The notes beneath the pieces were generated by a model. It made no database searches. It saw nothing but the letters and a program-made list of their open reading frames with translations, and had not been told where the DNA came from. A stretch of DNA of 64,000 bases from positions 32,001 to 96,000 of the forward strand of contig JAWBTQ010000002.1 in NCBI GenBank assembly GCA_038841535.1, written 5' to 3'. Made by a program: the position numbers and the translations under genes. How positions within the stretch are numbered: the stretch's first letter is position 1; every line of letters begins with the position of its first letter. Below are positions 1,880-45,720 of this stretch, piece after piece. The stretch is from Sulfolobales archaeon. GTDB taxonomy: Archaea; Thermoproteota; Thermoprotei_A; Sulfolobales; NBVN01.

Positions 1880-2100
1880 CCGCTTTCCTGCTATAAGGAG
1901 TAAAAAGTCTTCACATCGTCAGCACCCACAACAAGCAGAAAGTCTTTCGTAAGCTAGAGACGGGGCAAGGGAATACTCCAACATCGACGTCAACTTCTAG
2001 CAACTTTAGCAGCGGGCTTTTCTTAATTACGGCATTGTTGAATTAAACGAATGAGTGTCGGAAGAGGCGCAGTAGTGAACTCTATACTACGCTACGCTTC
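1880..2100 (+). pseudogene. Decayed tnpB fragment (RuvC-I region)
   Basis: ATCGACGTCAACTTC (1983-1997) = I-D-V-N-F, in a frameshifted context resembling the 'FRK..E..P.GILTIDVNFDNITLA' segment of crenarchaeal TnpB. Multiple stops. Confidence 0.45.
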
Positions 2101-2154
2101 ACTACTTTAGATTGATTTATCTATTCTTTTATGTAATATCGGAGGTGAACTTAG

Positions 2155-3204
2155 GTTAGCAAGGAGAAGAGAGTCTGGGTTGATGTGTTGACATCTAAGC
2201 AGGGGGTACTGCTTGGAACTCTCGCTAAAGAACTAATAAGCAGAGGCTTCGAAGTATTGGTGACCTGCCGAGAGTACGAATACGCGTGCAAGGTTTTAAA
2301 CGCTCTGCGTGTTCCATGCTTATCAGTAGGTAGATACTCGGAGGGTGGACCTGCTGCGAAAGTATATGAAGATGGACTGAGGGTCTCAGCACTTGCGGGC
2401 ATAGTTAGAGACTTCTCGCCCGAGTACCTCGTAGCTTACCCTAACCCCTCCGCTGCTAGAGTAGCTTTCGGAGTGGGTATAAAGTACATAGCACTAACTG
2501 ACTCACCTCACGCAATTATTCCAAGTAGGCTCTCTCTGCCTCTAGCGGATTTCGTAGTCTTTTCTGAGTGCATACCAGTAGATGAAGTTGAATCCTTCGT
2601 TAGCGAGAAGTTTACTAAACTTGTCACATACCGTGGAGTTGATGAAGTGGGCTGGATTAAGAGGTTAGAGCCTAAAGAAGAGGATGTTAAGCTTCTCGGA
2701 CTGAAGCCATGGGAATATGTCGTCTTTAGACCTGCTGAGGAAATGGCTACGTACTACAGGGGTTTAAGCGTTTTACCAGCACGTGAAGTTCTTCAAGTAA
2801 TTGCTAGGCTAGGTTACGACATCGTGCTCCTTCCACGATACTCTAAGCACAGAGAGCTGGAGAAAGAGGGAGTGATCCTGCTTGAGGAAGGGTTTAGTGG
2901 TCCCTCACTGACTTATTTCGCGAAATTAGTTGTTACAGGTGGGGCCTCAATAGCTCGGGAAGCAGCCCTCCTTGGAACACCATCTATAACGTATACGCCA
3001 CTCGAGCTATACGTTAACTCATGTTTAGAGTCCTGGGGGTTTCCACTGAGGAGGGTGAAGTCCTTGCTAGAGCTGGAGACAGTGTCTAGAGAACTAGTAG
3101 AAAGATCTATACAGAGCGATAAAGAGCTTTATGTTGATAGAGCTAAATCTCTTGAAGACCCACTTACCGTAGTCGAGGGAATACTTTCGGGTGGTGGCTT
3201 CTGA
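2155..3204 (+). CDS. DUF354 family protein (GT-B fold, glycosyltransferase-like)
   Basis: 339-aa ORF from 2185. The family N-terminal motif KRVWVDVLTSKQ extends in frame upstream to GTT at 2155. GGASIAREAALLGTP motif near the C-terminus. Confidence 0.8.
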   Translation, partial: VSKEKRVWVDVLTSKQGVLLGTLAKELISRGFEVLVTCREYEYACKVLNALRVPCLSVGRYSEGGPAAKVYEDGLRVSALAGIVRDFSPEYLVAYPNPSAARVAFGVGIKYIALTDSPHAIIPSRLSLPLADFVVFSECIPVDEVESFVSEKFTKLVTYRGVDEVGWIKRLEPKEEDVKLLGLKPWEYVVFRPAEEMATYYRGLSVLPAREVLQVIARLGYDIVLLPRYSKHRELEKEGVILLEEGFSGPSLTYFAKLVVTGGASIAREAALLGTPSITYTPLELYVNSCLESWGFPLRRVKSLLELETVSRELVERSIQSDKELYVDRAKSLEDPLTVVEGILSGGGF

Positions 3205-3232
3205 GGAGAGACTGTAGAACTTAGTTAGGTCT

Positions 3233-4090
3233 TTGGGGGCATCTGGCATGAAGGTTTATGTCACTGTTTGGTTTAAGGACTTCAGGAGGAGAGACTTAGC
3301 GAGTGAATTAGTTGGGGGAGGTTTCGACGGGTTCGAGTTGAGTCTAGATTACCCTATTTGTGGCAGAGTGAAGCTGGATGAAATGCCTCAAATAAGAGAT
3401 CTAATGAAGTCGGGGCTTGAAGCAGGTGTGCACCTACCTTGGCGCGAGATATATCTGGCATCACCAGTCGACGAAGTAAGAAAGACTTCTTTAAATATCG
3501 TGCTCAAATGTTTTAAGGAATCTCGTGTTTTAGAGCCAAAGTACGCAGTTTTACACGTAGTTACAGACCAAGCAGTATGCTCTGACGGCATTGAAGAGTG
3601 TATTACAGCGTCCACGAAATCTATAGAGGTACTTGCGGAAGTAGCTGACGAACTCGGTGTACCTCTCTATGTTGAGACCACACGGAACTTCTGCTGTGGA
3701 GGACTTGAGCAAGCTGTTAGCTACATAGAGCATAAAGTGGGCCTCTGCTTCGATATACCACACGCTATTGAGAGGTACAGCAGGCTGCGTAAAACTCCAC
3801 TGAGCCTTAGAGACATCCTCTGGGATGCACCACCTAGGTCTCTAAAAGCTATAGGGTGCGTCCACCTTCATGGGTATGTTTTGAGTGGATACTATGTTAT
3901 CGAATCGCACGTAGAGCCCAGTAAGGAGCTTTTAGAGGAGTACGTAGAAGTTATACGTAATGGTGTGATAAGACCTAAATATACTGTTCTAGAGTCTTTT
4001 TACTCTGCGGAGTCGAGAAAGTTTGTGAGGTTTGACAAGCTGAGGTGGTGTGTTGACGAGCTCAAGAAGAACCGTGATTGGGATAGATGA
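3233..4090 (+). CDS. Sugar phosphate isomerase/epimerase (AP endonuclease family 2) TIM-barrel protein; likely start ATG 3248
   Basis: GFDGFEL, GVHLPW, VLH, YVET, CFDIPH, VHLHG metal-binding pattern. Confidence 0.75.
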   Translation: MGASGMKVYVTVWFKDFRRRDLASELVGGGFDGFELSLDYPICGRVKLDEMPQIRDLMKSGLEAGVHLPWREIYLASPVDEVRKTSLNIVLKCFKESRVLEPKYAVLHVVTDQAVCSDGIEECITASTKSIEVLAEVADELGVPLYVETTRNFCCGGLEQAVSYIEHKVGLCFDIPHAIERYSRLRKTPLSLRDILWDAPPRSLKAIGCVHLHGYVLSGYYVIESHVEPSKELLEEYVEVIRNGVIRPKYTVLESFYSAESRKFVRFDKLRWCVDELKKNRDWDR

Positions 4091-4727
4091 GGCAGGTAGG
4101 GGCTCGCTCGTTGGTGACATGTTTGTTGCCGGGGTCGCCTTAAGCGATGAGCAAAGTAAGGTGCTGTTGGATGCTGGTATAAGAGATAGTAAGGCTTTAA
4201 GTAGGTCAACGAGGTACAGGCTCCTACTCGACATAATAAGGTGCTCGGACTTGATAGTGATTAGCCGCGTTTTACCTGAGGACATAGATAAAGAAAATAT
4301 TAATGACTTGGAGGTAAGAGCTATAGAGAGAATACTGAAACATGCTAGGTCTAGGGGAGTGGATCCCACAAAAGTAGTAGTAGACGAAATAGCCGGGCGG
4401 AGGGTAGAGGTCGAGACAGCTGTCAGGGACCTCTTTCCGAGCGCTGAGGTTATCATGAGGCCGAAGGCTGATAAGGACTTCGTGCAAGTATCGGCAGCCT
4501 CTATTGTAGCGAAATGCCTTAGAGATGGACTCATCAAGGTCTTGAGCTCTGTACATGGAGAAATTGGGAGCGGGTATCCTTCAGATCCAAGGACGATTAA
4601 ATGGTTGAAGCATGTAAAGGAGTCTGGAAGTACTCCTTGCTGTATTAGAAAATCTTGGAAAACTCTGCGGAGAGTTCAATTCCGAACCCTGGACATGTAT
4701 GCGAAGAGTAGTGAGAAAGGCGGTTAA
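4050..4727 (+). CDS. rnhB: Ribonuclease HII
   Basis: IGIDEAGRG, RDSK, KAD...VSAASIVAK, GSGYPSDP, IRKSW. Confidence 0.95.
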   Translation: MLTSSRRTVIGIDEAGRGSLVGDMFVAGVALSDEQSKVLLDAGIRDSKALSRSTRYRLLLDIIRCSDLIVISRVLPEDIDKENINDLEVRAIERILKHARSRGVDPTKVVVDEIAGRRVEVETAVRDLFPSAEVIMRPKADKDFVQVSAASIVAKCLRDGLIKVLSSVHGEIGSGYPSDPRTIKWLKHVKESGSTPCCIRKSWKTLRRVQFRTLDMYAKSSEKGG

Positions 4728-4790
4728 GTTAAGGTCCCCTACCATAATTCTTAATACTCATTCCTGCGATATTCTACTGGCATTAGTGAG

Positions 4791-5660
4791 TTGACCCTGA
4801 GAAGTTACGCTAGAAAGATGTGTGAGTCTGAGTACGTAGCTTATAGAACTTACATGTACGTTAGTAAGTATGTCGTGAGTGGAAAGCTGAAATCTGCGCT
4901 CGAGAAAGCTCTAAGCGACGAGTTCAGGCACTACAGGTTCTGGAGTGAGCTGTGCGGCGACTGCAGTGGTATAACAAGTTCGATAAAAGTTCTAGCTCTC
5001 TTCTTATTCTCGATTCTCTTTGGGGTCACAATACTGATTAAGGTTTTAGAGCGCGCTGAAGGAGATACGAGTAAGCTGTATGAAAGGTTATCTAAAGAAA
5101 ACCCCGAGTTCTCAGATGTCTTAAAAGCTATGGCTGAAGACGAAGACAGACACGAGAGTGAGTTTGCCAGTAGCATTGATGAAGCAAGGATTAAGTATCT
5201 GAGCTCGATAACTTTAGGTGTATCTGACGCGATAATCGAGCTTACGGGAGTCTATACAGGGGCTTTAGGTATGCTTGAATCTACGAAAACAGCCGGAACC
5301 ATAGGCCTCCTAGCAGGTATATCGGCCTCAGCTTCGATGGCTGCCGCATCTTACGCTCAAGCAAAGCACGAGGTATGGAAAAAGCCGTACTTAGCGGCGA
5401 TATACACAGGTACATCGTACTTAGCGGTAGTATCTCTGCTCGCATTACCTTACTTCCTCACTGAATCTCTATTAACGGCATTCGCTTTAATGGTCGCTAT
5501 AGCTAACATAGTCATAGCGTACATCTCGGTGTATGGTGCAGTAATACTTAGCAAAAGCTTCTTGAGAGAGTTCTTCTCTAATGTAGCACTCCTACTAGGT
5601 ATTTCAACAGCTCTCTATGCCTTGGGTCGAGCTTTAGGCACAGCCATTCTCGGACCATAG
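4791..5660 (+). CDS. Rubrerythrin-like domain fused to VIT1/CCC1 family metal transporter
   Basis: Two ExxH pairs (DEFRH, DEDRH) followed by LGVSDAIIELTG and GISASASMAAASY with TM helices. Confidence 0.85.
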   Translation: MTLRSYARKMCESEYVAYRTYMYVSKYVVSGKLKSALEKALSDEFRHYRFWSELCGDCSGITSSIKVLALFLFSILFGVTILIKVLERAEGDTSKLYERLSKENPEFSDVLKAMAEDEDRHESEFASSIDEARIKYLSSITLGVSDAIIELTGVYTGALGMLESTKTAGTIGLLAGISASASMAAASYAQAKHEVWKKPYLAAIYTGTSYLAVVSLLALPYFLTESLLTAFALMVAIANIVIAYISVYGAVILSKSFLREFFSNVALLLGISTALYALGRALGTAILGP

Positions 5661-5743
5661 AGCTATAGCGGCTAACTATACTCATGTTCTACTTTAAATA
5701 GTGCGAAGAAATTCATCATTTCTCAAGAAGTTATACATCGAAG

Positions 5744-6604
5744 TCACTTTCTAGAAAACCTGAGTCTGGGGTTGACTCTTTCTTCAATAGCTATTCCGAG
5801 GAGCGTGAACCCTGCTCCTAATAATGCTATTCCTAGCCCCGGCACGAAGACCCACAACCATAGCCCCTGGTGGAATGCGTGACCTACTTGAGCCCTCCTC
5901 AATATCTGTCCCCAGCTCTTTACTGTAGGATCCCCAAGGCCCAGGAAGCTTAGACCAGCTTCTGTCAGGATGGCTGATGTAGCACTCAACACTATGTTTG
6001 CTATTATTAGTGGAACTACGTGTGGAAGAATGTGTCTAATCATTATTCTAAAGCCTCCCGCACCAACAGCTTTAGCGGCTTCAACGTAAGGCCTCTCTCT
6101 GAGGCTGAGCACTTGAGCCCTTACCATTCTCGCAAACCCGGACCACCCAAAGAATGCGAGTACTAAGATGATATTGTTTAAACTAGGTCCCAAGTAAGCG
6201 GCTAGGATTATTATTAGTGGTAGAGATGGGAGGGCTAGCATGACGTCGATAGCTCCAGTAATGACCTCATCTGCCACACCCCCCAAATAGCCAGCGATGA
6301 GCCCAAGCATGGTGCCTAGAATAGAAGCTATGAATGGAGCAGTGAGACCCACAAATAGGCTGACTCTAGCACCATAGATAAACTCGCTGAATATGTCTTG
6401 TCCTATATCGTTTGTTCCCAGTAGGAATCTTTCGTTAGGTGGGGTGTAGGGGGGAGCTACTAACTCGTATGGGTTGTAAGGGGCTAGACCATCGGCAAAC
6501 ACCGCAACCAACGCGAAAGCAAGTATTATAGATAATCCAACGAGTCCGAACTTGTTTCCCACTATTGCTATATACATTTCTTTAAACACGGAAGCCATCA
6601 TCAC
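5744..6604 (-). CDS. dppC: Peptide/nickel ABC transporter permease (DppC-like)
   Basis: LLGTNDIGQD, YVEAAKAVGA EAA loop, EAGLSFLGLG. Confidence 0.9.
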   Translation of the reverse strand: MMMASVFKEMYIAIVGNKFGLVGLSIILAFALVAVFADGLAPYNPYELVAPPYTPPNERFLLGTNDIGQDIFSEFIYGARVSLFVGLTAPFIASILGTMLGLIAGYLGGVADEVITGAIDVMLALPSLPLIIILAAYLGPSLNNIILVLAFFGWSGFARMVRAQVLSLRERPYVEAAKAVGAGGFRIMIRHILPHVVPLIIANIVLSATSAILTEAGLSFLGLGDPTVKSWGQILRRAQVGHAFHQGLWLWVFVPGLGIALLGAGFTLLGIAIEERVNPRLRFSRK

Positions 6605-7581: not shown

Positions 7582-7590
7582 TCTCGAACC

Positions 7591-9507: not shown

Positions 9508-9560
9508 AGGTAAAATAGCACTAGGGTAAGTAACTTTCTCTCTTTTCTTGCGCAGAGGAG

Positions 9561-9577
9561 GCGGAGCTTAACTCCGC
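9561..9577. promoter_or_regulatory. Inverted repeat between divergent dppA and hsp20
   Basis: GCGGAG-CTTAA-CTCCGC in the shared promoter region. Confidence 0.3.
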
Positions 9578-10329: not shown

Positions 10330-10560
10330 CTTAGTGTTTTGAGAAGAAATTACAAGCTTTAGGCTATCTCGATTATAAGTTATAAGCTAGAGCAGTATAT
10401 GATTTAAGTATAGAGTAGACGGAAACACCGACCTAAATAACCTTATGATAGCTTCTACCCTTAGATGGGGACTGCGGATCGTTAGTCCCGACGGCCATTC
10501 TATTCACGAACCTATGGGAGCACAAGGTCCCCTCGAGTTGACTGAGAGATATGAGATAGG
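10330..10560 (+). pseudogene. Possible decayed tnpB C-terminal fragment and 3' end
   Basis: IISYKLEQY resembles the TnpB IEYKA motif. The following LRWGLRIVSPDG and the GGGACT...AGTCCC stem resemble a tnpB tail. Confidence 0.3.
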
Positions 10561-10574
10561 GGATGTAGTCAGGA

Positions 10575-10720
10575 GGTTAGCTCTGGTGTTGATTTACACT
10601 GGGCAGTGTCATTGCCTCATCTCATTCCCCCGCATCCCGCTCGGGTTATCGGCTTGGGGGCGTTCAGGACGACTCCGGCACCCCGAATTTTGTGTATCTG
10701 ATGTCTGTGATCGCTCTTGA
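10575..10720 (-). mobile_element. IS605-type tnpB 3' end / omegaRNA-like remnant, family A copy 1
   Basis: Minus strand reads GAGVVLNAPKP...AGCGGMR. It shares an exact 16-mer CGGGATGCGGGGGAAT with 12420-12435 and ends AGAGCTAACC. Confidence 0.7.
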
Positions 10721-10791
10721 GTGAGCCGATTTTCAGCTTCCCTACGAGCTCCCATATCTTCATCGAGAAGCTTCTACGCACTATTCTATAA

Positions 10792-10813
10792 AGAGACACT
10801 TATAGGTGTCTCT
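10792..10813. repeat. Perfect 8-bp inverted repeat
   Basis: AGAGACAC-TTATAG-GTGTCTCT. Confidence 0.6.
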
Positions 10814-10921
10814 AACGCATTAGCGAGAGTAGCATCAATCACTACAAACCAATACAAAACCAGAAACAACTCTGCAGAGCACCAATAAAATGTAGAGACA
10901 AACTGTAGTAAACCGGGCTAT

Positions 10922-12166: not shown

Positions 12167-12249
12167 AGCCTTACCCAGTAGCTAACCAGATCCAGGTATA
12201 AAACCTTCTGAAACTGCCTAGTTTTGCACCACGCTTTCGGAGCGTTTGC

Positions 12250-12486
12250 GGATTAGCATAACCAATTTCCAGCTCGTGCTGCACTGGTGAGATCCCTGCC
12301 TTAGATGCGAGTGGATAGGAGTCAGTGACGCGATAGCATGTTCAAACCTATTCCTTAGGTACTCAAGGTGTGGGGTTCTAGGGAACTCTGAAAACCCCTA
12401 AGCCCGATTATGACCTGATCGGGATGCGGGGGAATTTAGATAAGGTAGTATAATCAAACAATATGAACTGATGTCAGAGCTGAACC
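12250..12486 (+). mobile_element. IS605-type tnpB 3' end / omegaRNA-like remnant, family A copy 2
   Basis: 12327 onward reads DAIACSNLFLRYSRCGVLG (RuvC-III D..A..NL). Contains CGGGATGCGGGGGAAT and ends AGAGCTGAACC. Homologous to 10575-10720 and 27075-27240. Confidence 0.75.
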
Positions 12487-12510
12487 ACATAACCAACGTA
12501 TTTAAATCTG

Positions 12511-17344: not shown

Positions 17345-18311
17345 CATTCGAGTAGTGCACATAGCTGGCTACGCAACGGTTCAAGATCTGGGTAGAAGGG
17401 GGTATAGAGCTATAGGAGTCCCAGTCTCAGGAGCTCTTGACAGACTGTCCGCAGTATACGCTAACGCTCTAGTTGGCAACAAGCCGGGGGCTGCGGTAAT
17501 CGAGGTATCCGGAACCATGACGTTAGGTCTCCAAGGGGATGCCATAATGTCCGTTACCGGGGGCTATCCAAAGGTGTTTCTAGACAACGTGGAGGTAGAG
17601 CCCTGGACGCCTCTCTACTGCCGCCGGGGCAGTACTCTTCGTATATACCCGACTGGAGCTGGGCGTGTTCACTACGTAGCCATATCAGGCGGAGTTGTCT
17701 GTGAGGAAGTCCTGGGAAGTATGTCTACCTACACTAGGGGTGCTATGGGGTGCTTAGGCAGACCTCTAAAGCCCGGAGATATCTTAGATGTAGGTTCAGC
17801 TGATCCAGTCGAGGTATGGGAGAGAGTATCCGACCTAAGACCTCCCGAACAGCTGGTGAGTAGGTATGCTAAACCTGAGGCATCTCTGACTCTGAGGGCT
17901 ACCGCAGGTATTCATATGCACCTCTTAGAGGATGCAGATCTACTGTTACGTAGCGAGTACTTAATTACTCCAGAGAGCGATAGAATGGGCTACAGGCTTG
18001 ATGGAGAACCCCTCTCTTCGGCTAGAAGACTCGGGAGACTCCCGTCTGTACCAACCGATAGAGGATATGTACAAGTACCCCCAGACGGTAAGCCCATAGT
18101 GCTGATGTCTGACTCTCAGACAACGGGCGGTTACGCAGTAGCTCTCCACGTAATCCCGCAGGACACCGACTTCTTAGCGCAACTAAACCCGGGTCAGAGG
18201 GCTAGATTCAAGCTCATCGACCTAAGCGAGGCAGAAGCTAGTGTGAGAAATTACCTCGAGGAGATCGATAAGCCCCTCCTCTACCGGAAGGAGCTGGAGT
18301 ACTGGGGCTAG
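17325..18311 (+). CDS. pxpC: 5-oxoprolinase subunit C
   Basis: TVQDLGR.GY..GVP.SGALD, SDRMGYRL, QVPPDGKPIVLM.D.QTTGGY. Confidence 0.95.
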   Translation: MVTTMRNIRVVHIAGYATVQDLGRRGYRAIGVPVSGALDRLSAVYANALVGNKPGAAVIEVSGTMTLGLQGDAIMSVTGGYPKVFLDNVEVEPWTPLYCRRGSTLRIYPTGAGRVHYVAISGGVVCEEVLGSMSTYTRGAMGCLGRPLKPGDILDVGSADPVEVWERVSDLRPPEQLVSRYAKPEASLTLRATAGIHMHLLEDADLLLRSEYLITPESDRMGYRLDGEPLSSARRLGRLPSVPTDRGYVQVPPDGKPIVLMSDSQTTGGYAVALHVIPQDTDFLAQLNPGQRARFKLIDLSEAEASVRNYLEEIDKPLLYRKELEYWG

Positions 18312-18454
18312 CTCACTCGCTGCGGTATCCGGCTCTCTCACGATGTTTTAATACTGTAAAATCCGGAGGTATTCAGTAATCAGCCCAAAGAAGCTTTATC
18401 GCTTTCGTTAAAATAATGGTGCTGTGCGGCGTGCGCGCCGGTATCAGTAAGATC

Positions 18455-18930
18455 AATGTACATCCAGTGAAGAAGGTTGTGATAGTGCCTCGTTATGCTA
18501 TGAGTGGTGGAACGTCGATAGCTCTAAATGCCGTTGAGATAATAATGAACCCTGATGCGGTTTTGGACCTCTAGATCCCCAGCTTCAGGTAAGCAACGCA
18601 ATATCCCCGGCTCCCAGTTTGATAAGGGTAGCCAAGATAAAGAGTAGTGCGGCTAGCGATCACACAACGTCTTAGCGGACGTAGCCGAGAAGGCGATCAG
18701 GGAGGTTCAGGAGCTCATTGTTCAACTCCTCGAGGATAAGTTAGGTAGAGAAGGCTACTGAAGTAGCTTGCAACCTGACGGAGGGCTACTATATCCATGA
18801 TTACCCGATCACCGTTGGGGAGATTTAGAAACTAGGTCTAAACGTCAGGACGGAGGCACTACGAGAGTCATACGAATTGATGGAGCTATACCCGTAGGCA
18901 CTTCAACAGAGACCTGGCGTCGATACCTAC
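18455..18930 (+). pseudogene. Frameshifted SDH-family ClpP-fold serine proteinase pseudogene (C-terminal half)
   Basis: Across frameshifts: HPVKKVVIVPRYAMSGGTSIAL..EIIM.PDAVL/PLDPQL...LADVAEKAIREVQE...EGYYIHDYPITV...ELMELYP. Internal stops; absent from the ORF track. Confidence 0.85.
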
Positions 18931-19029
18931 AGCGACCACATGTTCCTTACTATGAGCGTGGTCCAGCAAGAGAATAGGCCTATGAGTGCTCAGCATCAGT
19001 TTAGACCAAGCCCTGGATTATAGTCAGAA

Positions 19030-19260
19030 CGTACTCGTTTTTGGTTAATCGTTTCCCGCTCTAGGTTTTTGTAGGTTTTCCTAGGGTGGGTTGTGCCTCC
19101 TACCCTGCGGTTCACTGTGGCTACCAACCACTCTACGCAGGTGTCATGGGCACCTTTCGAGCCCAACGGCACGGGGCTCACATCTAGCTCTACCTCTAGG
19201 TGTCTCGAAGTACCTCTCATCATCGTGAAGAAATCCCACAAAAACATTTATAAACCTAAC
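19030..19260 (-). mobile_element. Internally deleted tnpB mini-element: TATA box, start codons and structured 3' end
   Basis: TTTATAAA (19247-19254), ATGATG about 24 bp downstream, then LDVSPVPLGSKGAHD..VEWLVAT resembling crenarchaeal TnpB tails. Three stems and an A/C-rich tail follow. Confidence 0.6.
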
Positions 19261-19289
19261 ACACTAAAACAGTTGCCAACCCTATGGAG

Positions 19290-19400
19290 TTAGGAGGAGT
19301 CCTTAAGATTTAGACAAAGCTTCTTAAATCCGTCAATGAAAACTACGAGAAGTTTATGAACATGCTTGTGGGTCTGACGTTCCATAGGACTGTCGTAACT
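19290..19400 (+). pseudogene. Possible decayed tnpB fragment (RuvC-II region)
   Basis: Frameshifted VL(E)DLDK / LLKSVNENYEKFMNMLVGLTFHR resembles the TnpB 'VLEDL.KL..SVN....F...L....YR.L' segment. Confidence 0.4.
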
Positions 19401-19709
19401 TAGATAACTAAGGAGCTAGAGAATTGCGCTGGTTATGTAGCCCAACACGACTATTTAGGGTTTCATATCTCATGGCACTAGTTGAAGCAGAATCCTCTGC
19501 CACCAGCATTACTAAAACGTACAGGCTTTCTCTGCTATTTTGCCTACAGGAGCTACACTCGAGATATGGGACGTCCATGGTACTCTGTACGTGCTCGGGC
19601 TCGATGAGAACTAGAGCGGAATGCGAAGAAGCAAAACGAGACTCCAATGTCGTCCCACACAAAGCTATATGATAGCTTACCCCTAAGGCTTGAACTCGCT
19701 ACTCTAGCT

Positions 19710-19880
19710 ACTGGGGTTCCATCACAGTCTAAAGCCCGACCTTTCGAAGCATGAAGGGGGTCGGACTGAACCATTTCCGGTCATAGACCCCTTGAGTTAA
19801 CCTAGCTCAAGTCTCGGGGGCTTAGAGAAACCGATGAGCAGTTTAAAGCCTACAAAGCACGTAAAAAGTACGCAGTCACG
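19710..19880 (+). ncRNA. Structured element, candidate omegaRNA-like tnpB right end
   Basis: Stems CCGACCTTTC/GAAGGGGGTCGG (19736-19764) and CTTGAGTTA/TAGCTCAAG (19791-19811) with G-U pairs on the plus strand; A-rich tail ending TCAC at 19879. Confidence 0.4.
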
Positions 19881-20014
19881 CCAAAGCGTGTAAAGGCCTC
19901 GAAGAGAAGTGGAGCTCAGGGACCAGAGACTTAGCCAACCCTCTCTAAACATCGCATGTCTTACACTAGGTACATCAGGAAGGCCGTTGACACGAGTCTT
20001 GAGAATCAGTGGTA

Positions 20015-26419: not shown

Positions 26420-26660
26420 GTATCTGTTGCTGAAGTAATAGGTATCTTAATGTTTCCAGGAGTCTAGACCCGATAGAAAAGAGAGTTGAGTATAGATAGC
26501 GCTATTGAGAGACTATGACAGGAAGCAGCAGAAGCACGGAAGCGAAACAAGTTCTTTCAGGAAAGCTGTGAAAAACTACGGGAGAGAACCGCCGAGATGG
26601 AATTAAGGAACAAGATCGCACCTACGGTAGAAAAGATAGCCGTCGAAGAGAACGCCAAGG
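26420..26660 (+). pseudogene. Decayed tnpB fragment (bridge-helix region)
   Basis: RKQQKHG..SSFRKAVKNYGRE / RTAEMELRNKIAPTVEKIAVEENA resembles TnpB 'K..KYG.RE.NR..D..HK.A..I...A.E'. Confidence 0.5.
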
Positions 26661-26830
26661 GCGTGGACTTCGCGGTCCTGTAGTTCACCACGAGGTTGTG
26701 TACAGCTCCGTGAGAGCTATCTACATGCCCGGGTTCAGGCGGATGATAAAGTTTCTTGAGGGCAATCCTTAAGTGAGGGACGTCGCGATCTTCGAGTTCT
26801 CGAGGTCGCCGAGATGCTTCCTGGGCATCA
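26660..26830 (+). pseudogene. Serine recombinase/resolvase fragment (IS607 TnpA-like or plasmid resolvase)
   Basis: HEVVYSSVRAIYMPGFRRMIKFLEGNP*VRDVAIFEFSR matches the 'E..SG.....RPGF..M........V.I.E.SRL.R' resolvase core; in-frame stops. Confidence 0.55.
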
Positions 26831-26999
26831 GCGAGAGCGAGCATAATACCATCGTGGAGTACGGCGAGTGTATGAGCGGGCTGGGAGAGTCAACACGTGT
26901 TTCGGAGGAGAGGAGATAGAAGAAGGAGCATGGCTTCTCTACTCTATTTCGAGTTACGCAGGGGGTGTTTAGAAGTTGCGAGTAGCCTCAAGAAAGGTT

Positions 27000-27240
27000 A
27001 TGCCGACCTCCTCCCAACTAGAGGACGTACTTTCGTTTGTAAAACAGCGCCTTCTATGCTGCGGCATGTCTAGAACTCTTTAAAGCACTATGTGGGGTTC
27101 AAGGAGGTAGAGGCGTGATAGCGTGCGTGAACTCATTCCTAGGGTACTCAGGATATCGGGGTCGCAGTACCCTTGAATGCCCTTAGTTGTGCGGGCTAGT
27201 GATTAGTGCGGGAGAAATGAGTAAGGCACTAGTATAAGCC
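27000..27240 (+). mobile_element. IS605-type tnpB 3' end remnant, family A copy 3
   Basis: GGCGTGATAGCGTGCGTGAACTCATTCCTAGGGTACTCAGG (27112 on) aligns with GACGCGATAGCATGTTCAAACCTATTCCTTAGGTACTCAAGG (12327 on). GTGCGGGAGAAATGAGTAAGGCA matches the tail of copies 1 and 2. Confidence 0.7.
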
Positions 27241-27269
27241 AAGCCTGGTATATGGACCGGATCCCGCCA

Positions 27270-28055
27270 CTAGATTGTTCTTCCCTCACTCCACAGCATG
27301 TTAAAGTAGTTTTTGACCTGTTGCGCAATGGTGTTAGATACTATGAGTACCGATACCTCGTGGTTGTACATCAGGGCGCTCTCAGTCCAGTTGTGGCTGC
27401 CAACAAACACGTATTGATCATCGACTACAACCAACTTTGCGTGGGTAGTCACAGATTTGCTCTTGTCGAGCCTCACTGGCACCCCGCTACTCTTTAGGTA
27501 GTCTATCGTTTCACTGTAGCTGCTGTAGGTCACGTCGTCGACGAGCACTTTCACGTCGAGGCTCCTCTTGTAGGCGTCGACGACTGTGTACAGCAGCGTG
27601 TTCACTGGATCGTCGGTCTCGCTGGGGTCATACTTCATAGCGTACATCATTATGTAGATGCTCCTGTTGGCCCTACTCAAGATGCTCAGTAAAGCGTAGT
27701 AGTAGTCATCGTCCACGAGCAGGTCTACGTTAACGGCAGCAGTTACTGTGACTGGCTTCGTGACTATGTATGTCGTCGTGTAAGCTATCGTGAAAGTAGT
27801 TGTGGAAGTCGTTGTAACGGCCCTCGTAGTTGTAACAGTCGAGACCGAGGTCGCAGTTCTTTCAACAGTCCCCGTAATCGTCGTAGGTAAAGTCTGTACC
27901 ACTGTAGCGAAGAGCTCGAGAGTCCTCGTAGTCGTACTCAAGAACGTTGCCGTAACTGTGTGGTAAACAGGAGGCTTTGAGGCACTAATGCTGTAACCAA
28001 TTAGCGCTCCGATGACTAACATGAGGCATGCTAAAGCGAGGGCTTTAGCGTTCAC
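27270..28055 (-). CDS. Surface/secreted phospholipase D-superfamily (Nuc-like) protein with Thr-rich stalk
   Basis: N-terminal signal/TM, Thr-rich linker, single HKD motif HAKLVVVD..GSHNWT...NHE. Confidence 0.85.
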   Translation of the reverse strand: MNAKALALACLMLVIGALIGYSISASKPPVYHTVTATFLSTTTRTLELFATVVQTLPTTITGTVERTATSVSTVTTTRAVTTTSTTTFTIAYTTTYIVTKPVTVTAAVNVDLLVDDDYYYALLSILSRANRSIYIMMYAMKYDPSETDDPVNTLLYTVVDAYKRSLDVKVLVDDVTYSSYSETIDYLKSSGVPVRLDKSKSVTTHAKLVVVDDQYVFVGSHNWTESALMYNHEVSVLIVSNTIAQQVKNYFNMLWSEGRTI

Positions 28056-33764: not shown

Positions 33765-33774
33765 GTGCATTCTT

Positions 33775-35421
33775 TTGGCTAGAGCCTCCGGTCATTTTGA
33801 GAGCTTGATCAGCGAGGTAGCTAAGCTGGGTGGAGTACTAGAGCAAGTATCTCATGGTGCTGCCTACTTTAGGGTGAGTCGAGCTAACCTGAAGCATATG
33901 GCTAAGGCTCTGTACAGTGTCGGGGCTTACTTTAAGACTTGTGTGGGGTCTGACGAGACCCTGGTTTCTGGAGGTATGGCTCTATACTACATCTTCGGTT
34001 TCGACGAAGCGGGACTTGACGTAGTTTTGAGAGCTGAGGCCCCCGTAGCAAACCCTGTCTTCCCATCGATATCCGCAGAAGTTCCCGCAGCTGAATGGTG
34101 CGAGCTCGAAGCGGGAGATATGCTTGGAGTGCGGTTTGAGAGTAAGGAGATGCGGAGGCTAGTACTGCCGGAGGACTGGCCTGCGGGAGTGTACCCGCTT
34201 AGAAAGACCTTTAAGTACAGTAGTAGACCTGCTCCTACAGCTAGACGAGAGCTCCAAGAGGTAGGAGGCCTCCCGATGGGTCCCTATCATCCAGTTCTCC
34301 ATGAGCCAGAGTACTTCGAGATATACGGTGAAGGCGAGATCGTTACCGACGTCGTCTACAGGGGTTTCCACGTCCACAGAGGTATCGAGAAGTTGGCTGA
34401 ATCTGAGCGCATGGTCTATGACGACGTGCTCTTCCTAGCTGAGAGGATATGCGGGATATGTGGCTTCGTGCACTCTTGTTGCTACGCTCTAGCGATCGAG
34501 AAGGCAGCAGACGTAGAAGTTCCTGAGAGAGCAGAGTTCATAAGGTCTCTACTCCTGGAAATCGAGAGGATACATAGTCACGTCCTCTGGCTCGGTGTAG
34601 CTGCCCACATACTGGGGTACGACGCTGGGTTCATGCATGCTTGGAGGATTAGAGAGCCGGTAATGGTTGCGGCAGAGCGTCTCACGGGGTCAAGAAAGAC
34701 TTATGGTATTAACGCGATCGGCGGGCTGAGGAGAGACGTAGATAGAGATAAGTTAGAGAAAGCAGTAAGAGACCTAAAGAGGGTTAGGAGGATGTTCTCG
34801 GAGTTTGCCGGAGTCCTCCTCAGTGTCCCGCAAGTTAGGAAGAGAGCCTCAGGTACAGGGATCTTGTTGAAGAGTATTGCGAGAGAGCTGAGCGTGGTGG
34901 GTCCTGTTGCCAGGGCGTCCGGCCTCTATAGAGATGTAAGGAAGGATTACCCGTACTTTGCTTACAAGCACGCTTCGTTTAGAGTTCCGCTCTACACCGA
35001 GGGGGACAACCTCTCCAGGCTCATGGTTAGAGTTGACGAGGTGCTCGAGAGTATCGACATAGTCGAGCAGTTAGTAGATAGACTTCCCCAGGGTAGTGTG
35101 AGAACTGATAGAGTTGAGATACCTATTCTGAGAAAGGCTGTAGCCTCCGTGGAGGCCCCGAGGGGTGAAGACGTACACTTCATAATTACCGGTTCCAGTA
35201 GACCATATAGGTGGAGGGTTAGAGCACCCACGTACCAAAACCTACCAGCTCTCAGGGCTATGCTCAAAGGTGCTCCCCTAGCAGACGCTCCGCTGACTAT
35301 AGCAAGCATAGACCCGTGCTTTTCGTGCACAGACAGAGTGATCTACTGCGATAGGCAGAGTGGGTTCTGTAAACCCCTGAGGTCGGACTTGCTAAATAAC
35401 TCTGGGGGTAGTGTAGCTTGA
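33775..35421 (+). CDS. Group 4 [NiFe]-hydrogenase large subunit, NuoC-NuoD fused (HycE/HyfG-like)
   Basis: L1 ERICGICGFVH, L2 DPCFSCTDR plus C-terminal extension; N-terminal NuoC-like RRLVLPEDWP..YPLRK. Confidence 0.92.
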   Translation: MARASGHFESLISEVAKLGGVLEQVSHGAAYFRVSRANLKHMAKALYSVGAYFKTCVGSDETLVSGGMALYYIFGFDEAGLDVVLRAEAPVANPVFPSISAEVPAAEWCELEAGDMLGVRFESKEMRRLVLPEDWPAGVYPLRKTFKYSSRPAPTARRELQEVGGLPMGPYHPVLHEPEYFEIYGEGEIVTDVVYRGFHVHRGIEKLAESERMVYDDVLFLAERICGICGFVHSCCYALAIEKAADVEVPERAEFIRSLLLEIERIHSHVLWLGVAAHILGYDAGFMHAWRIREPVMVAAERLTGSRKTYGINAIGGLRRDVDRDKLEKAVRDLKRVRRMFSEFAGVLLSVPQVRKRASGTGILLKSIARELSVVGPVARASGLYRDVRKDYPYFAYKHASFRVPLYTEGDNLSRLMVRVDEVLESIDIVEQLVDRLPQGSVRTDRVEIPILRKAVASVEAPRGEDVHFIITGSSRPYRWRVRAPTYQNLPALRAMLKGAPLADAPLTIASIDPCFSCTDRVIYCDRQSGFCKPLRSDLLNNSGGSVA

Positions 35422-39323: not shown

Positions 39324-39348
39324 CTAGGTCTTACTACGCACTCACCGC

Positions 39349-41319: not shown

Positions 41320-41532
41320 TTAAAATCTTTTAAACCTTGAAATTACAAGCAGTTTCATCAAAGCTGACTAATAAGCTTGCACGAATAAATATAGGATACT
41401 AGTTGATGACAGATCTATGAGCGCTGTCGCGATCCACCGTACTGCACTATGAGGAAAGCTCTGCGTACGAGAGTGTGAAGTTAGTTGTTTGTGCTTAAAG
41501 GTACCGAAGTACAAGAACAATAGGCATGAAGC

Positions 41533-42429
41533 ATGAGCTCATCTTGGGTTTTAAAGAAGAGAGCTGCTTACTTAGAGGGTTTCATATCTACGTTGGTTAA
41601 CTTAGCCTTATTTTTAGTTAAGTACTTCGTTGGTATTGTGTTCAACTCTGTAGCTATTGTTGCGGATGCTTTTCACACTCTATCCGACTCTCTAACTTCT
41701 ATCGTTCTCGTAGCTGGGTATAGAGTTGCCGATAAGCCTGCCGATAGAGAGCACCCGTTCGGACATGGTAGAGCTGAAACCGTAGGAGGACTTATCATAG
41801 GTGTATTACTCAGCGTTGTTGCGTACAGTTTTACGGTATCTAGCTACGAGAAGCTCTTGACTGCAGTCCCCCTCGAGTACTCAGACATACTTATAGTAGT
41901 GCTAATCGCTTCGACGATCTTTAAGGCCGCCCTAGGCCTTTGGGCTTATAGACTCGGTGGGAAACACGAGAGTCAGCCGATAGTGGCAGATGCCTGGCAT
42001 CATGCTAGTGATGCTATAGCTACCGCCCTACTGGCAGTAGCCATATATGTCGGCAAAGACTACTGGTGGCTAGATGCTGTACTAGGAATAGCTGTTTCAG
42101 CACTTATTTTCATAACAGCAGCTAAAATAGTCTATGAGAGCTCGTCAGAGCTGCTCGGGAGGTCTCCTAGCAGAATAGAGTTAGACAGACTCGTAGAAGC
42201 TGTGCGAGAAGCCTATCCCGCGGTAAAGCGGGTTCACCATATACACTTCCACAAATACGGAAACCATATAGAAGTAACACTACATATAGAGCTACCCGGT
42301 GGGACACCACTCCGGGAAGCTCATGAAGTAGCAACTAAGATCGAGAATGCTGTGAGGAGTAAGTTAGGATATGAAACAACGGTACACGTAGAGCCGGGAG
42401 GAGAGCTCGTAAAAGACCATGTTGACTAG
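41533..42429 (+). CDS. Cation diffusion facilitator (FieF-like)
   Basis: ADAFHTLSD, HPFGHGRAE, ADAWHHASD, TVHVEP. Confidence 0.92.
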   Translation: MSSSWVLKKRAAYLEGFISTLVNLALFLVKYFVGIVFNSVAIVADAFHTLSDSLTSIVLVAGYRVADKPADREHPFGHGRAETVGGLIIGVLLSVVAYSFTVSSYEKLLTAVPLEYSDILIVVLIASTIFKAALGLWAYRLGGKHESQPIVADAWHHASDAIATALLAVAIYVGKDYWWLDAVLGIAVSALIFITAAKIVYESSSELLGRSPSRIELDRLVEAVREAYPAVKRVHHIHFHKYGNHIEVTLHIELPGGTPLREAHEVATKIENAVRSKLGYETTVHVEPGGELVKDHVD

Positions 42430-42599
42430 TCGAATTCTCAGAGCGATATACCGAGTCTCTTGCCTACCTAGACCCTAAAATTTAGAGTAGGTCAAATCGG
42501 GTAAGTAAGACCCGCATTAAACTGGTTCTTTAACACGTGCTTATCCCAAGATTTAATTATCTGCTTTAAATGTTCTTGAGGGGGTTTACGTGTCCCTCT

Positions 42600-43560
42600 A
42601 TGTGCGCTGGGTGTAGTCGAAGGAAGTTGAGCTAAGCTATAGGTTTCTGAGTAGGAGTTCTTTGAAAGCCGTAGTTCTTGTTCATGGAAACCTCTCTTCT
42701 TCCGCTATATGGGAGGACGTTATGAGAGCTGTTAAGGAGGACTTTGATGTACTCGCACCAGATCTAAGGGGTTTTGGTAATAGTGGGAGGGCTCCTGTCG
42801 ACGCTACGAGAGGTCTTAGGGATTTCTCAGAGGACTTGCTTGAGCTCCTCTCTATACTCGGCTATAAAGGCTACGTTATGGTTGAGCACAGTATGGGAGG
42901 TGGCGTAGTCCTTCAAGCCCTACTTGATGCTCCTAGTAGTGTTAGAATCAAGAAGGTAGTACTCGTGGACCCTATCTCTCCATACGGATATGGGGGGACT
43001 AAGGACGAATTCGGAACACCATGTCATAGTGACTATGCCGGCTCTGGTGCTGGGCTAGTTCTGAGGTATAACCCCGATTCCGTTAACTTGCTGAAAGCTA
43101 AGTACACGGGAGTAGACCACCCTTCAGCTCCAGAAAATGCCATTAAGTCTCTATTTGCTGACGATTTCGTCATCAGTGAACAACTTCAAAAGAAGCTTCT
43201 AGACATGCCGTTTAGTGTAGAAGTAAGTGTAGATAATTACCCTGGAGATTATGTGGAGAGCCCGAACTGGCCTTATGTGGCACCCGGCACTAGAGGAGTT
43301 CTCAACGCTATGTCCCCGAAGCATATGAACATCTACAAAGTGGTTAACGCTCCATTAAAGCCCCCCGTTCTCTTGGTTCACGGCAGCAAGAATATAATTA
43401 TCTCAGATATGTCACTACTAGACCTAGATGTCCTAGGAACGATGGGCTTCGTCCCGGGGTATCCCGGTCGAAATGTATTCCCATCCCAACCTATGGTTAG
43501 CAGATTAAGGTGTTTCTAGAACCAGAGTAGCTAGTGACATGCTCATTCCGTCTTAGTCAA
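42600..43560 (+). pseudogene. Alpha/beta hydrolase, probably decaying (residual ORF 42662-43519)
   Basis: VHGNLSS and APDLRGFG are present, but the nucleophile elbow reads EHSMGG (G to E). The ORF ends without an obvious catalytic His and the N-terminus appears disrupted. Confidence 0.6.
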
Positions 43561-43845
43561 TACTGTGTCCACTAACTTTCGAGCTCTGCCAATACTTGTG
43601 ACTCCCAGCGAGTGCCTTATCCACTCTCTTTATACTGAAGGCGATGTTGTTGGATTAGACCTAGTTTCCGATCCAAACGCCGCGATGGGGGTAAACTCAG
43701 ATAACAATACTGCACACGCTTGACCAACCACTAATAGGAGCCAGCTCGCAGAGCAGACTTGCTAGTTTGTGACTATAGTACTTAAATTCGTTAAAACTTT
43801 TTAAGCTCTCGTCCAATGAGTATAAAGGGACCACGGTGACCTGTT

Positions 43846-44979
43846 ATGGTTAAAGAAAAAGTTCCCTTTCTAAGGCGTATGGCTTATGCTGCTACTACTG
43901 CCGTAATTCTTCAGAGTGTTTGGATAGGCGGTGGTTTCGGGTCTGGAAGAGAGATAGTCGAGTTCATAGCTAAATACGGTTCTTTTGCGTGGGCATCCAT
44001 TGTGGTATCGGCTGTAGCACTAGCGTTAGCACTCATCCCCTCCCTAGAGATAGCCAGAGTATTCAAGGCATATGACTACATGACATGGTCAAAGCAGTTC
44101 TTGTGGAGGTTTTGGTGGGTGTTCGACATATCCTTCATAGTTCTCGCATGGATCGTCATAGCTGTTGTTGGCGCTGCCGCCGGCTATATGCTCTCAGACA
44201 TCGCGGGCATACCGTTTGCTGTATCGGCCACGATTGTAATAGTCGTAGTAGGAATACTCCACTTCTTCGGTAGGAAGGTTATTGAAGCATACTGGATCGT
44301 AGGAACCATCGGGCTTTATGTCATGTACTTTATAATTTGGAGCTACGTTCTAATGGCTGTTGGAGTCAAAGCCTTCGAGAACCTGAGGGCGGGACTCTAC
44401 ATGGGGACGTTCTCAGAGGCTATCGTTGACGGGTTTAGGTATACCCTTTACAACCTGTGCGTAGTAATGCCTGCTCTAGAGTCCGTCGATAGGTATAAGG
44501 GGAGAGCAGAAAGCCTTATAGCCACGCTACTAGCAGTTTTACTGGTCTACGGTGCCGCTACGGCGATATGGATATGCTTTATGGCTTACTACCCAGGGGT
44601 CGTAGGTATGACTGTGCCATGGTACGACATCCTTAAGAGTATGGGAGCGTACTGGGCACTAGGGATATACGTATTCTGGATATTCTATACATTGGTTGAA
44701 ACAGCTTTGGGTATGGTATATGCTATTGTGAGAAGGGTCGACGCCCAGCTGCGGCTTCGCGGAAAGGCGTTGGGAAGAGTCGGAGAAGCCGTGTTGTCAG
44801 TTATCATATTGGTGGTGTCTATAGTAACAGCTCAAGCAGGTCTGGTAGCACTTGTAGCAGCCGGTTATGGCACGATGGCGTGGGTCTTCTTCGGTGTATA
44901 CTTCCTTCCCATGATAGCCATAGGCTTGCCGAGACTGATAAACCCAAGTTGGAAGAGGGAGTTCTGGGCTAAAGCTTAG
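43846..44979 (+). CDS. YkvI family membrane protein (APC-like amino acid transporter)
   Basis: IGGGFGSGREIVEF, ETALG, LVAAGYG; about 10 TM. Confidence 0.85.
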   Translation: MVKEKVPFLRRMAYAATTAVILQSVWIGGGFGSGREIVEFIAKYGSFAWASIVVSAVALALALIPSLEIARVFKAYDYMTWSKQFLWRFWWVFDISFIVLAWIVIAVVGAAAGYMLSDIAGIPFAVSATIVIVVVGILHFFGRKVIEAYWIVGTIGLYVMYFIIWSYVLMAVGVKAFENLRAGLYMGTFSEAIVDGFRYTLYNLCVVMPALESVDRYKGRAESLIATLLAVLLVYGAATAIWICFMAYYPGVVGMTVPWYDILKSMGAYWALGIYVFWIFYTLVETALGMVYAIVRRVDAQLRLRGKALGRVGEAVLSVIILVVSIVTAQAGLVALVAAGYGTMAWVFFGVYFLPMIAIGLPRLINPSWKREFWAKA

Positions 44980-45149
44980 CGGAGATTTATAGCGACTCGC
45001 TAAAAATATAACCGTACTAACCTTTTTCTGAGTACACTCACATGGATGATTCATTCCGCTTTTAAGTAGCTTAGGCCAACGTGTTTAACAAGAGAATTCT
45101 GTTGAGTAAGTAGACCACTAAGGTCTCGTTAAATAGTCTTAGGAAATTG

Positions 45150-45720
45150 AGGAAAGTGCTTCAGACCCGCGCTCGTAACACGAGCATCTTGAGGTTACGA
45201 GAATTGGAGCTGGAAAACCTCGAGAAAGTAGTTGAGAGTTATAGATGCCCTCACACGCGGGGAGGTTGCGGCCGCGGCGCTAAAGGACTTTGAAAGGGTA
45301 GGAGCTGAGTTTCTAGGGAGTGTACCCATAATAACCGCCCCCGATCTCTATACGAGATCCTCTCTACTTACGTGAACGCCTGCGGAGACGCTATAGCGGC
45401 AACGTATGTGGTAAGAGTCTGTGGTTACAGGGTTAGTAGCGCGGAGAGTAGACTACTAGAGCTTGTAGCTGTTTCTTTTCTCTAGGTTTCTGTAGGTCTC
45501 TCTACGGCTCTTGGAGCTCTTGGTGTAACCAGGTATACACAAACGTTAGCGAGTACCCTGCGTCTATAAACTGTAGTCGGTGACCCCTAGCTCCCGAGCT
45601 CTCTCCCCACGGTCTATCGTAGGTCTCGTGGGGAAACCGTGATGGATCACTTGGGAGAAAACTAAAAACCTTGGGATGGGAAACAGTGTCTATCCCCAAA
45701 TCCGTACATGCTTTAATCCC
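45150..45720 (+). pseudogene. Decayed tnpB C-terminal half followed by a structured 3' end
   Basis: Fragments in TnpB order: LELENLEK (RuvC-II), YVNACG/NVCGK (VNP..TS..C..CG), SWCNQ..EYPASIN (zinc finger/RuvC-III); strong stems at 45591-45699. Confidence 0.55.

Follow-up and report, generated by a model that had tools for sequence, protein, structure and literature searches.

Remnants and gene-less miniature derivatives of two TnpB transposon families in a hot-spring Sulfolobales archaeon

A preliminary description of a 64-kb stretch of DNA from a Sulfolobales archaeon, here called the window, had reported about nine relics of tnpB, the nuclease gene of TnpB transposons, and had suggested that several of them could be orphan genes for omegaRNA, the RNA that guides TnpB. 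We searched the window by tblastn, blastn and nhmmer and found significant similarity to TnpB elements at seven of the nine reported loci, four of which are miniature elements and three of which are pieces of tnpB; nothing was found at about 1.9 and 10.3 kb, so a TnpB/omegaRNA origin stands for the seven loci only. From comparison of the sequences, we consider it probable (about 0.7) that these loci are leftovers of two TnpB transposon families and that the miniature elements are standalone omegaRNA genes, whose products would be loaded in trans by TnpB. The loci are a known kind of mobile DNA, present as gene-less copies and broken pieces, and do not make up a new system.

The window is C2:32001-96000 of a 1.56-Mb genome (G000; 40 contigs, 83.77% complete), where numbers with C denote contigs of this genome and G002, G005 and G007 denote genomes of relatives. 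The sequencing runs that contain it are hot-spring metagenomes. For tblastn we used 12 TnpB-related frames of this genome, together with 20 open reading frames (ORFs) of at least 150 aa from the TnpB loci of five relatives, flanking ORFs included. The window, as well as 21 intergenic gaps, was compared with the genome by blastn, and profiles of elements, miniature elements and tails were run against the 64-kb window with nhmmer. The genome's own TnpB sequences proved to be far more sensitive queries than general hidden Markov models. Across the genome, PF07282 gave 21 matches at E ≤ 1, 10 of them above the cut-off, and NF040570 gave 16, one of them above the cut-off. Neither model matched inside the window, which has no intact tnpB ORF, and this agrees with the preliminary description, which saw none at the loci. 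The Pfam family OrfB_IS605 (PF01385) had just two weak matches in the genome, none of them inside the window.

Parent families and their miniature elements

Each of the two families has a single intact copy in the genome. Family A is of the IS607 type, about 1.96 kb long, and consists of a MerR-helix-turn-helix (HTH)/serine-recombinase tnpA and a tnpB; its intact copy lies on C18. The C18 tnpA is a 195-aa ORF with an N-terminal HTH (Pfam Resolvase, E 5.8e-26; HTH_17, E 7.7e-8), and its end overlaps the start of tnpB by 29 nt, which is the IS607 gene arrangement. The tnpB itself is open and encodes a protein of 423 aa (TnpB-A). A second family-A copy, at 40.3-41.4 kb of C1, is frameshifted. Family B has tnpB only and is about 1.5 kb long. 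Its intact copy, on C19, encodes an open TnpB of 403 aa (TnpB-B), has no transposase gene beside it and has its left end about 240 nt upstream of tnpB; fragments of the family lie on C9, C3 and C1. The suggestion that an intact tnpB is encoded elsewhere in the genome was thus borne out for both families. Both TnpBs match Cas12f1-like_TNB (Pfam, E 5.9e-17 and 1.3e-15) and have a CxxC...CxxC ribbon, and the C18 protein scores 100.1 bits with NF040570, barely above the cut-off of 100. The motifs are IGVDVN, VVVLEKL and HDRDV in TnpB-A and TIDVN, VVVLEDL and GDRDV in TnpB-B. The D of IGVDVN and the D of HDRDV align with Cas12f motifs, the first of these alignments being weak, and the glutamate is the one that we take to belong to the RuvC-type motifs. 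Judged by these residues, both TnpBs keep the motifs expected of an active RuvC site. Five further short or broken TnpB-like frames (C17:25663-26121, C17:10552-10776, C4:108210-108664, C3:51754-52056 and C11:35429-35662) belong to other families, with NF040570 E-values of 2.8e-21 to 5.8e-4, and none is full length.

The two families are otherwise unrelated, yet their left ends have the 12-nt word GCAACTGTTTCG in common (C18:1980-2059, C19:~2740-2766, and 19250-19283 and 10850-10877 of the window). Because of this shared word, the single serine recombinase encoded on C18 probably moves both families. The 13-nt word GCAACTGTTTCGG has 71 matches in the genome with at most two mismatches. A search for the Y1 transposase (PF01797) gave no match in the 83.77%-complete genome, with two candidates scored and none passing.

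Miniature elements consist of a left end joined straight to the last 130-180 nt of the parent, which run from the 3' end of tnpB through the right end, and they measure 224-308 bp in the window. OmegaRNA scaffolds are encoded in just this part of an element, from the overlap with the 3' end of tnpB to the right end. The window's miniature elements contain neither a nuclease ORF nor a transposase ORF. The bounds set by the parents' ends are present at the loci at 10.6, 19.1, 19.4-19.7 and 45.5 kb, and they are absent at the three ORF fragments. An identical junction between left end and tail occurs in several copies with unrelated flanks. Because the same junction recurs in many copies with different flanks, including copies in two other species, we conclude that these four loci were inserted gene-less and that their tails did not outlast an ORF in place. 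The preliminary description had the 3' ends outlasting the ORF, which holds for the loci at 12.3 and 27.1 kb and not for the four miniature elements.

Tails far outnumber nuclease genes. At E ≤ 0.01, the tail profiles found 29 A and 58 B tails in the 1.56 Mb, against one intact tnpB per family, and just two A tails come after more than 100 codons of tnpB-A. The left-end word lies at most 520 nt upstream in 33 of the 55 full B tails, one of the 33 belonging to an adjoining A element. B miniature elements are typically 262-292 bp long, with four copies of about 190 bp, and the intact tnpB on C19 has the same upstream left end as they do. Flanks were all different in the 24 A and 55 B copies listed, except for one pair that represents the same locus at contig ends. 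Directly beside a family-B tail, at C1:222947-223377, lies a family-A miniature element, a nested or adjacent insertion, and the candidate guide of this A element falls in or beside another element.

Copies were also found in related species. A search with TnpB-A gave a match in 22 of 31 genomes, and in G002 and G007, which belong to the same genus, many matches were restricted to residues 378-423. The full-length 234-bp A element is present in at least nine copies in G002 and at least three in G007, with 81-91% identity and all at other places. Orthologous spacers in these two congeners are shorter by about the length of an element, a comparison made by length, as the sequences are too diverged for base-level mapping of empty sites. 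The spacer at 10.2-10.9 kb measures 720 bp here and 379 bp (G007) and 407 bp (G002) in the relatives, which is 313-341 bp shorter, and the spacer at 18.3-20.1 kb measures 1766 bp here and 827 bp in G002. In three DNA runs, we found no contig joining across 19047-19283 or 10570-10877 and no empty-site allele, the assemblies breaking at the element borders. One DNA contig skips 148 bp at 19100-19249, and this skip probably comes from another copy.

Two of the four miniature elements in the window lie on the minus strand. The family-A (IS607-type) element at 19047-19283 is 237 bp long, with its left end at 19203-19283, its tail at 19049-19186 and a candidate guide at 19028-19047. Over 234 bp it shares 92% identity with C1:223147-223377 and C26:1396-1631. 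Its outermost 56-81 bp correspond to C18:1980-2059, just upstream of tnpA, and the remaining 140-155 bp match C18:3789-3943, which is the end of tnpB plus 18 nt past the stop codon. The tail, which is 87-90% identical to the C18 tail (profile E 5.7e-42), reads as TnpB residues 379-424 with one frameshift (tblastn E 2e-13), and an 83-aa ORF at 18996-19247 without a Pfam match is this frameshifted C-terminus. The family-B element at 10570-10877 is about 305 bp long, with its left end near 10877, its tail at 10572-10692 and a candidate guide at 10551-10570. It matched positions 8-279 of the 281 in a profile of 25 family-B elements (nhmmer E 2.7e-37; tail E 5.9e-26), and four similar copies of 250-300 bp lie elsewhere in the genome.

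The other two lie on the plus strand. At 19440-19687 is a decayed family-B miniature element with a left-end piece at 19440-19489 and a tail at 19560-19683 (nhmmer E 0.012 and 7.9e-11, respectively), which is 62-66% identical by blastn to 11 B copies. At 45464-45687 is a variant that we call A2, which matched C2:174992-175189 (blastn E 1.7e-22) and C7:69404-69622 (E 4.8e-13) and ends in GGGAAACAGT. The A2 group has 3-4 copies with a different or diverged interior. Its C7 copy shares with family A the left end and the final ~44 nt of the right end, and is matched by the A-tail profile (positions 40-139, E 8e-12); the same profile at E ≤ 10 does not match the window copy. A weak repeat at 45131-45237, 64% identical to C2:117395-117503 (E 7e-5 and 1e-5), is unrelated to TnpB tails.

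The three tnpB pieces are all on the plus strand and lack a left end. The remnant at 12198-12489 derives from the family-B tnpB 3' end (zinc-ribbon/RuvC-III), with a tail at 12363-12488 and a flank at 12490-12509; it matched residues 347-405 of the C19 TnpB (tblastn E 2e-7), with two in-frame stops and some loss of cysteines, and gave nhmmer E-values of 1.4e-17 (element) and 1.1e-26 (tail). Just upstream of it, 12 extra bases occur after 12195 in two DNA runs (one contig each, depths 18.3 and 4.78), a strain-level indel. An internal family-A fragment without a tail, covering about residues 246-273 of 423, lies at 26526-26698 (nhmmer to the C18 element, E 1.3e-7; blastn to C18:3341-3471, E 4.5e-9; tblastn E 0.013). 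At 27073-27242 is a family-B 3'-end fragment (RuvC-III region) with a partial tail, which matched copies on C3 and C9 (blastn E 2.4e-7 and 1.7e-6), the element profile (nhmmer E 1.2e-4), tail positions 3-99 of 129 (E 0.0035) and TnpB protein (tblastn E 0.004-0.037).

Structure and conservation of the tails

For structure we relied on covariation, because folding energy was significant in just one of six window tails (19047-19190, z -2.10, with 4 of 200 shuffles as good). In the A tails (18 sequences; 28 pairs in seven helices), 81.0% of 474 cells were paired, compared with 34.5-47.6% when the partners were slid by 1-3 columns, and 26 cells were changed on both sides, compared with 14.3 +/- 3.2 in shuffles (0 of 500 reached this number). 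For the B tails (40 of 49 full-length tails) we used a model of 15 pairs that leaves out the 3' part of the tail and any pseudoknot. Here 90.7% of 590 cells were paired against 32.9-61.0% with slid partners, and 58 cells were changed on both sides against 22.4 +/- 4.1 in shuffles (0 of 500). A separate test set of 24 pairs, for which we took 18 A tails of G002 and G007 and added the C18 reference, gave 89.7% pairing against 28.7-48.8%. In this set 13 cells were changed on both sides against 2.9 +/- 1.7 in shuffles (0 of 500), and these changes fell on 6 pairs against 2.1 +/- 1.0 (1 of 500). Compensatory changes, whose absence the preliminary description had named among the signs against its proposal, are therefore present in A, in B and in the G002/G007 set. 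The strong stems that it noted are only partly borne out by folding energy, with one of the six tails reaching z ≤ -2, and the support for structure comes from covariation. RNAalifold alone returned partial structures, and when 51 B tails were scanned pairwise for covariation, G-U noise prevailed except at pairs 43-62, 44-61, 45-57 and 15-24. The G-U pairs, which are numerous, can be understood only if the tnpB-sense strand is the one that folds, and this fits RNA (or one DNA strand) better than duplex DNA.

The window copies keep these pairs to different degrees. The family-A tail at 19049-19186 has 28 of 28 consensus pairs, in a model partly drawn from this copy. Among the family-B tails, 14 of 15 pairs are kept at 12363-12488, 13 of 15 at 10572-10692 and 9 of 15 at 19560-19683.

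Conservation in the miniature elements extends over the whole tail. Among 25 B miniature elements, mean pairwise identity was 0.71-0.77 in the first 40 nt, 0.52-0.53 in the linker and 0.69-0.77 in the 129-nt tail, and it was 0.81-0.85 in the arms of the variable-loop hairpin. The IS607 recombinase of the CboIStron study can excise an element with 40 bp at the left end and 60 bp at the right end (10.1101/2023.11.20.567912). Because conservation of the tail extends past the 60 bp needed by this one studied recombinase, analogy, and analogy only, suggests that the tail does more than bind the recombinase.

Candidate guides, hints of expression and competing explanations

Homology among copies ends after ...GCGGGAAACGGT in family A and after ...GAGCTGAACCCC(T) in family B, and the next 20 nt differ in each copy listed, apart from the contig-end pair. 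We compared these flanks with control 20-mers taken 100 nt further on. A second genome match of at least 15 nt was found for 5 of 24 A flanks and 7 of 24 controls, and for 16 of 55 B flanks and 17 of 54 controls. The sole perfect 20/20 match joins two contig ends. Two window guides, from the seven loci, had no match in viral contigs as exact 20-mers. With no excess of second sites, the candidate guides would point at their own insertion sites, in line with the homing model in print. These flanks do not fit a network of targets in trans, and the proposal of dispersed guides for other targets found no support in the flank or viral-contig comparisons. As for a target motif, AGGG abuts the A left end in five of six aligned copies and GGG in the sixth, as read from the alignment. 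The A right end is CGG in most copies, including seven of the eight closest, and CGA in the window copy at 19047-19283. No target duplication is visible at the family-A ends in the alignments.

The left parts of both families contain sequences resembling promoters. The A left end, that of 19047-19283 included, has a TTTATAAA box about 60 nt from the outer border, and B elements have a (T/C)TTATAA-like box after GAAAC, about 30 nt upstream of the hairpin. These boxes may be archaeal promoters. In one metatranscriptome library we found contigs whose A-type tails lead to different flanks (with loose ends at 19050, 19061 and 19186), which gives a hint of A-type tail transcription and only that. 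The metatranscriptome contigs come from a related strain or community and cover part of the region, most pieces being 90-99% alike. Contigs of the RNA run leave, for example, 18218-18804, 19392-19978 and 26436-27600 uncovered, and B tails have no clear cover, although such gaps in contig cover prove nothing.

These observations can be combined in a model in which each miniature element is a standalone omegaRNA gene transcribed from the TATA-like box in its left part, with the 16-20 nt of host DNA past the right end as its guide. The intact TnpB of the same family would take up the RNA in trans, which is plausible by analogy with described systems. Once the serine recombinase had excised an element, the TnpB complex would cut the site left empty, and repair that draws on a sister copy would restore the element, which is the published role in homing and retention. 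The three ORF fragments and the decayed copy at 19.4-19.7 kb are most likely inert. More tentatively, and with somewhat less than even confidence, we propose that the miniature elements act as guide-RNA genes with promoters of their own and live as parasites on their parents' TnpB, that one recombinase moves both of the unrelated scaffold families through their shared left-end word, and that the full scaffold is under selection because copies able to have TnpB re-cut their emptied sites in trans are retained. If true, this would explain why scaffold miniatures outnumber nuclease genes by about 40 to 1 and why they persist across species of the genus, and an archaeon would then provide a natural and quantifiable instance in which guide RNAs evolve as selfish units of their own.

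Several observations weigh against a function as omegaRNA genes. The structures were drawn from the same sequences on which they were scored, and the copies are related, so the excess over the shuffle controls is inflated. In the B tails, the number of pairs with a change on both sides was 7, compared with 7.6 +/- 1.3 in shuffles (407 of 500 reached it), and the double changes come mostly from one hairpin in two sublineages, where CC..G/C..GG is replaced by GG..A/T..CC. The A model has a weak second helix (34-37 with 45-48), with 66.7% paired, and the pair 36-46 within it occurs in 0 of 18 test-set sequences. Folding energy in the other five window tails ranged from z +0.78 to -1.60. The remnant at 12.3 kb is 0.70-0.75 identical to three references in its tail and 0.72-0.77 in its coding remnant, and this tail shows no sign of selective preservation. 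The tail could also be conserved as DNA needed by the recombinase. Assembled RNA contigs show no ends, strand or level, and a library can contain DNA. The TATA-like box of family B was seen, by eye, in only about half of the 25 copies, no clear conservation was seen beyond the B left end, and the candidate target-adjacent motif (TAM) of family A, AGGG, comes from alignments only. Having CGA in place of CGG, the window A copy may no longer be excisable.

The main alternative is that all of the loci are inert debris, with miniatures spreading by means of the recombinase's DNA sites, with the tail a passenger or required as DNA, and with stems inherited from a past as active elements, no RNA being made or used. 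Three of the seven loci are plainly truncated pseudogene pieces, the tail at 12.3 kb decays at the rate of its coding remnant, the copy at 19.4-19.7 kb keeps just 9 of 15 pairs, folding z-scores are mostly unremarkable, and the A2 variant spreads with a different interior. The preliminary description had allowed for neutral fossils, and the three ORF remnants do look like plain fossils. Compensatory and G-U changes keep the sense-strand stems among gene-less copies, in two other species as well. The 129-nt tail is conserved throughout and the linker less so, and the one IS607 recombinase studied needs only 60 bp at the right. Copies with a tail (29 and 58 matches) are far more numerous than the A2 type (3-4), and standalone omegaRNAs acting in trans have been published (PMC10691335). 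We therefore regard debris throughout as unlikely, though it is the alternative to be taken most seriously.

We give far less credence to a domesticated, TldR-like guide set, in which orphan scaffolds would direct an active or dead TnpB to host genes, plasmids or viruses. It could draw on the many scaffolds per nuclease gene and on the TATA-like box upstream of the scaffold in some copies. However, second-site matches of the flanks did not exceed those of control 20-mers, the one perfect match is between two contig ends, both window guides tested lacked an exact match in viral contigs, and both full-length TnpBs keep the acidic RuvC-type motifs. Copies also lie at different places in related species, like mobile DNA and unlike fixed regulators. 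As a general account, chance or low-complexity similarity at loci unrelated to TnpB is hardly credible. It does apply at about 1.9 and 10.3 kb, where all of the searches came up empty: tblastn gave nothing with the 12 frames of the genome at E < 1 or with the relatives' 20 ORFs at E < 0.5, blastn of the two gaps against the genome gave best E-values of 0.088 and 0.45, and nhmmer gave nothing at E ≤ 10. The protein-level matches at 26.5 and 27.1 kb are weak as well (E 0.004-0.037). For five loci, chance is refuted by nhmmer E-values from 1e-7 down to 1e-42 against the 64-kb target, by a protein-level match of E 2e-13 and by matches collinear with the 3' ends of the intact tnpB genes, the tail profiles being collinear with C18:3804-3941 (A) and C19:1269-1395 (B). 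Taken together, we favor leftovers of two TnpB families with miniature elements that may serve as standalone omegaRNA genes.

Surroundings and relation to known systems

The large ORFs of the window are ordinary genes, which encode a gamma-glutamyltranspeptidase, an SBP_bac_5 binding protein, HSP20, a CN hydrolase, two sodium:solute symporters, a DEAD/MZB helicase, an iron-dependent repressor, a PLD-like protein and a prismane protein. Rfam, applied to the full 64 kb at gathering thresholds, gave no match. The genome has a gene for ribosomal protein L37ae (Pfam E 1.6e-28), a protein not known outside archaea and eukaryotes. At 50768-54290 lie two ABC exporter genes (ABC_membrane + ABC_tran; 591 and 590 aa), adjacent paralogues that overlap, and within them a 44-nt stretch, 52218-52261, is identical to C1:83210-83253. 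The segment 33899-35709 has 66-72% DNA identity to C16:13130-15151, the two holding paralogous genes for membrane-bound hydrogenase/complex-I-like subunits, and the ORF at 33775-35421 carries Complex1_30kDa, NiFeSe_Hases and Complex1_49kDa domains. On the plus strand at 18416-18980 lies the broken remnant of a ClpP-like SDH-type serine protease gene, with a 52-aa ORF at 18416-18574 and 71%-identical DNA at 18460-18978 to an intact 290-aa gene in G005 (PF01972, E 5.5e-122). The 1.7-kb gap at 18312-20014 therefore consists of a dead gene and two miniature elements.

For annotation, this means that most of the long gene-free gaps in the window are transposon debris and not unknown RNA genes, and that tails should be masked as repeats. 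The genome offers a clean natural case of guide-RNA scaffolds apart from the nuclease gene, with 87 tail matches against two intact tnpB genes in 1.56 Mb and with the same 234-bp element in many copies in two sister species. For TnpB biology, it adds archaeal scaffolds of compact size (about 140 nt), AGGG as a candidate target motif and natural variants with compensatory changes, all of which the engineering of thermostable TnpB could use. It opens no new question, since earlier work has described standalone omegaRNAs and their action in trans. In a limited full-text search of the literature that did not extend to supplements, we found no archaeal miniature elements derived from IS607 with omegaRNA scaffolds.

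TldRs are nuclease-dead TnpB repressors with fixed guides (PMC10705468, PMC13622181), and they resemble our case in having omegaRNA-like scaffolds away from an active transposon. In contrast, the TnpBs here keep their acidic motifs, the scaffolds are mobile and multi-copy, and the guides match their own flanks. A TldR-like domesticated system was rejected as a candidate, with the acidic motifs kept in both TnpBs and second-site matches of the guides not above controls. Palindrome-associated transposable elements (PATEs) of IS200/IS605 often encode omegaRNAs that would need TnpB from other IS elements (PMC10055086), and a PATE with IStron ends has been described (10.1101/2023.11.20.567912). Like PATEs, the miniature elements are gene-less, have the left and right ends of a parent and would rely on a transposase and a TnpB encoded elsewhere. 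PATEs, however, go with a Y1 transposase, palindromic ends and single-strand movement, whereas family A has a serine recombinase. A strict IS200/IS605 PATE was likewise rejected, as PF01797 had no match in the 83.77%-complete genome and the family-A parent has a serine recombinase. On these sequence grounds, the window elements are better called IS607/IS1341-derived miniature inverted-repeat transposable elements (MITEs) than PATEs.

The IS607-type CboIStron (10.1101/2023.11.20.567912) shares with family A a small serine recombinase tnpA with an N-terminal HTH, a scaffold of several stem-loops beside the right end and, to judge from alignments, a G-rich motif at the left end (AGGG here, TGGG there) and GG at the right end. 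It differs in that the elements described here have no group I intron, reside in an archaeal host and are mostly gene-less miniatures, with the GG core and the TAM read from alignments. The remaining comparison is with the standalone omegaRNAs of OMEGA systems, which were evidently mobilised without effector and transposase and work in trans with compatible effectors, their role being unknown in the published account (PMC10691335). As in those systems, mobilised scaffold copies without nuclease or transposase genes occur here in a genome with effector loci, a guide would lie just outside the transposon end, and there are many scaffolds per nuclease gene. Unlike the standalone omegaRNAs in print, those proposed here belong to an uncultivated hot-spring archaeon, differ in abundance and descend from IS607-type and tnpB-only parents, with use in trans suggested by analogy to the published ones.

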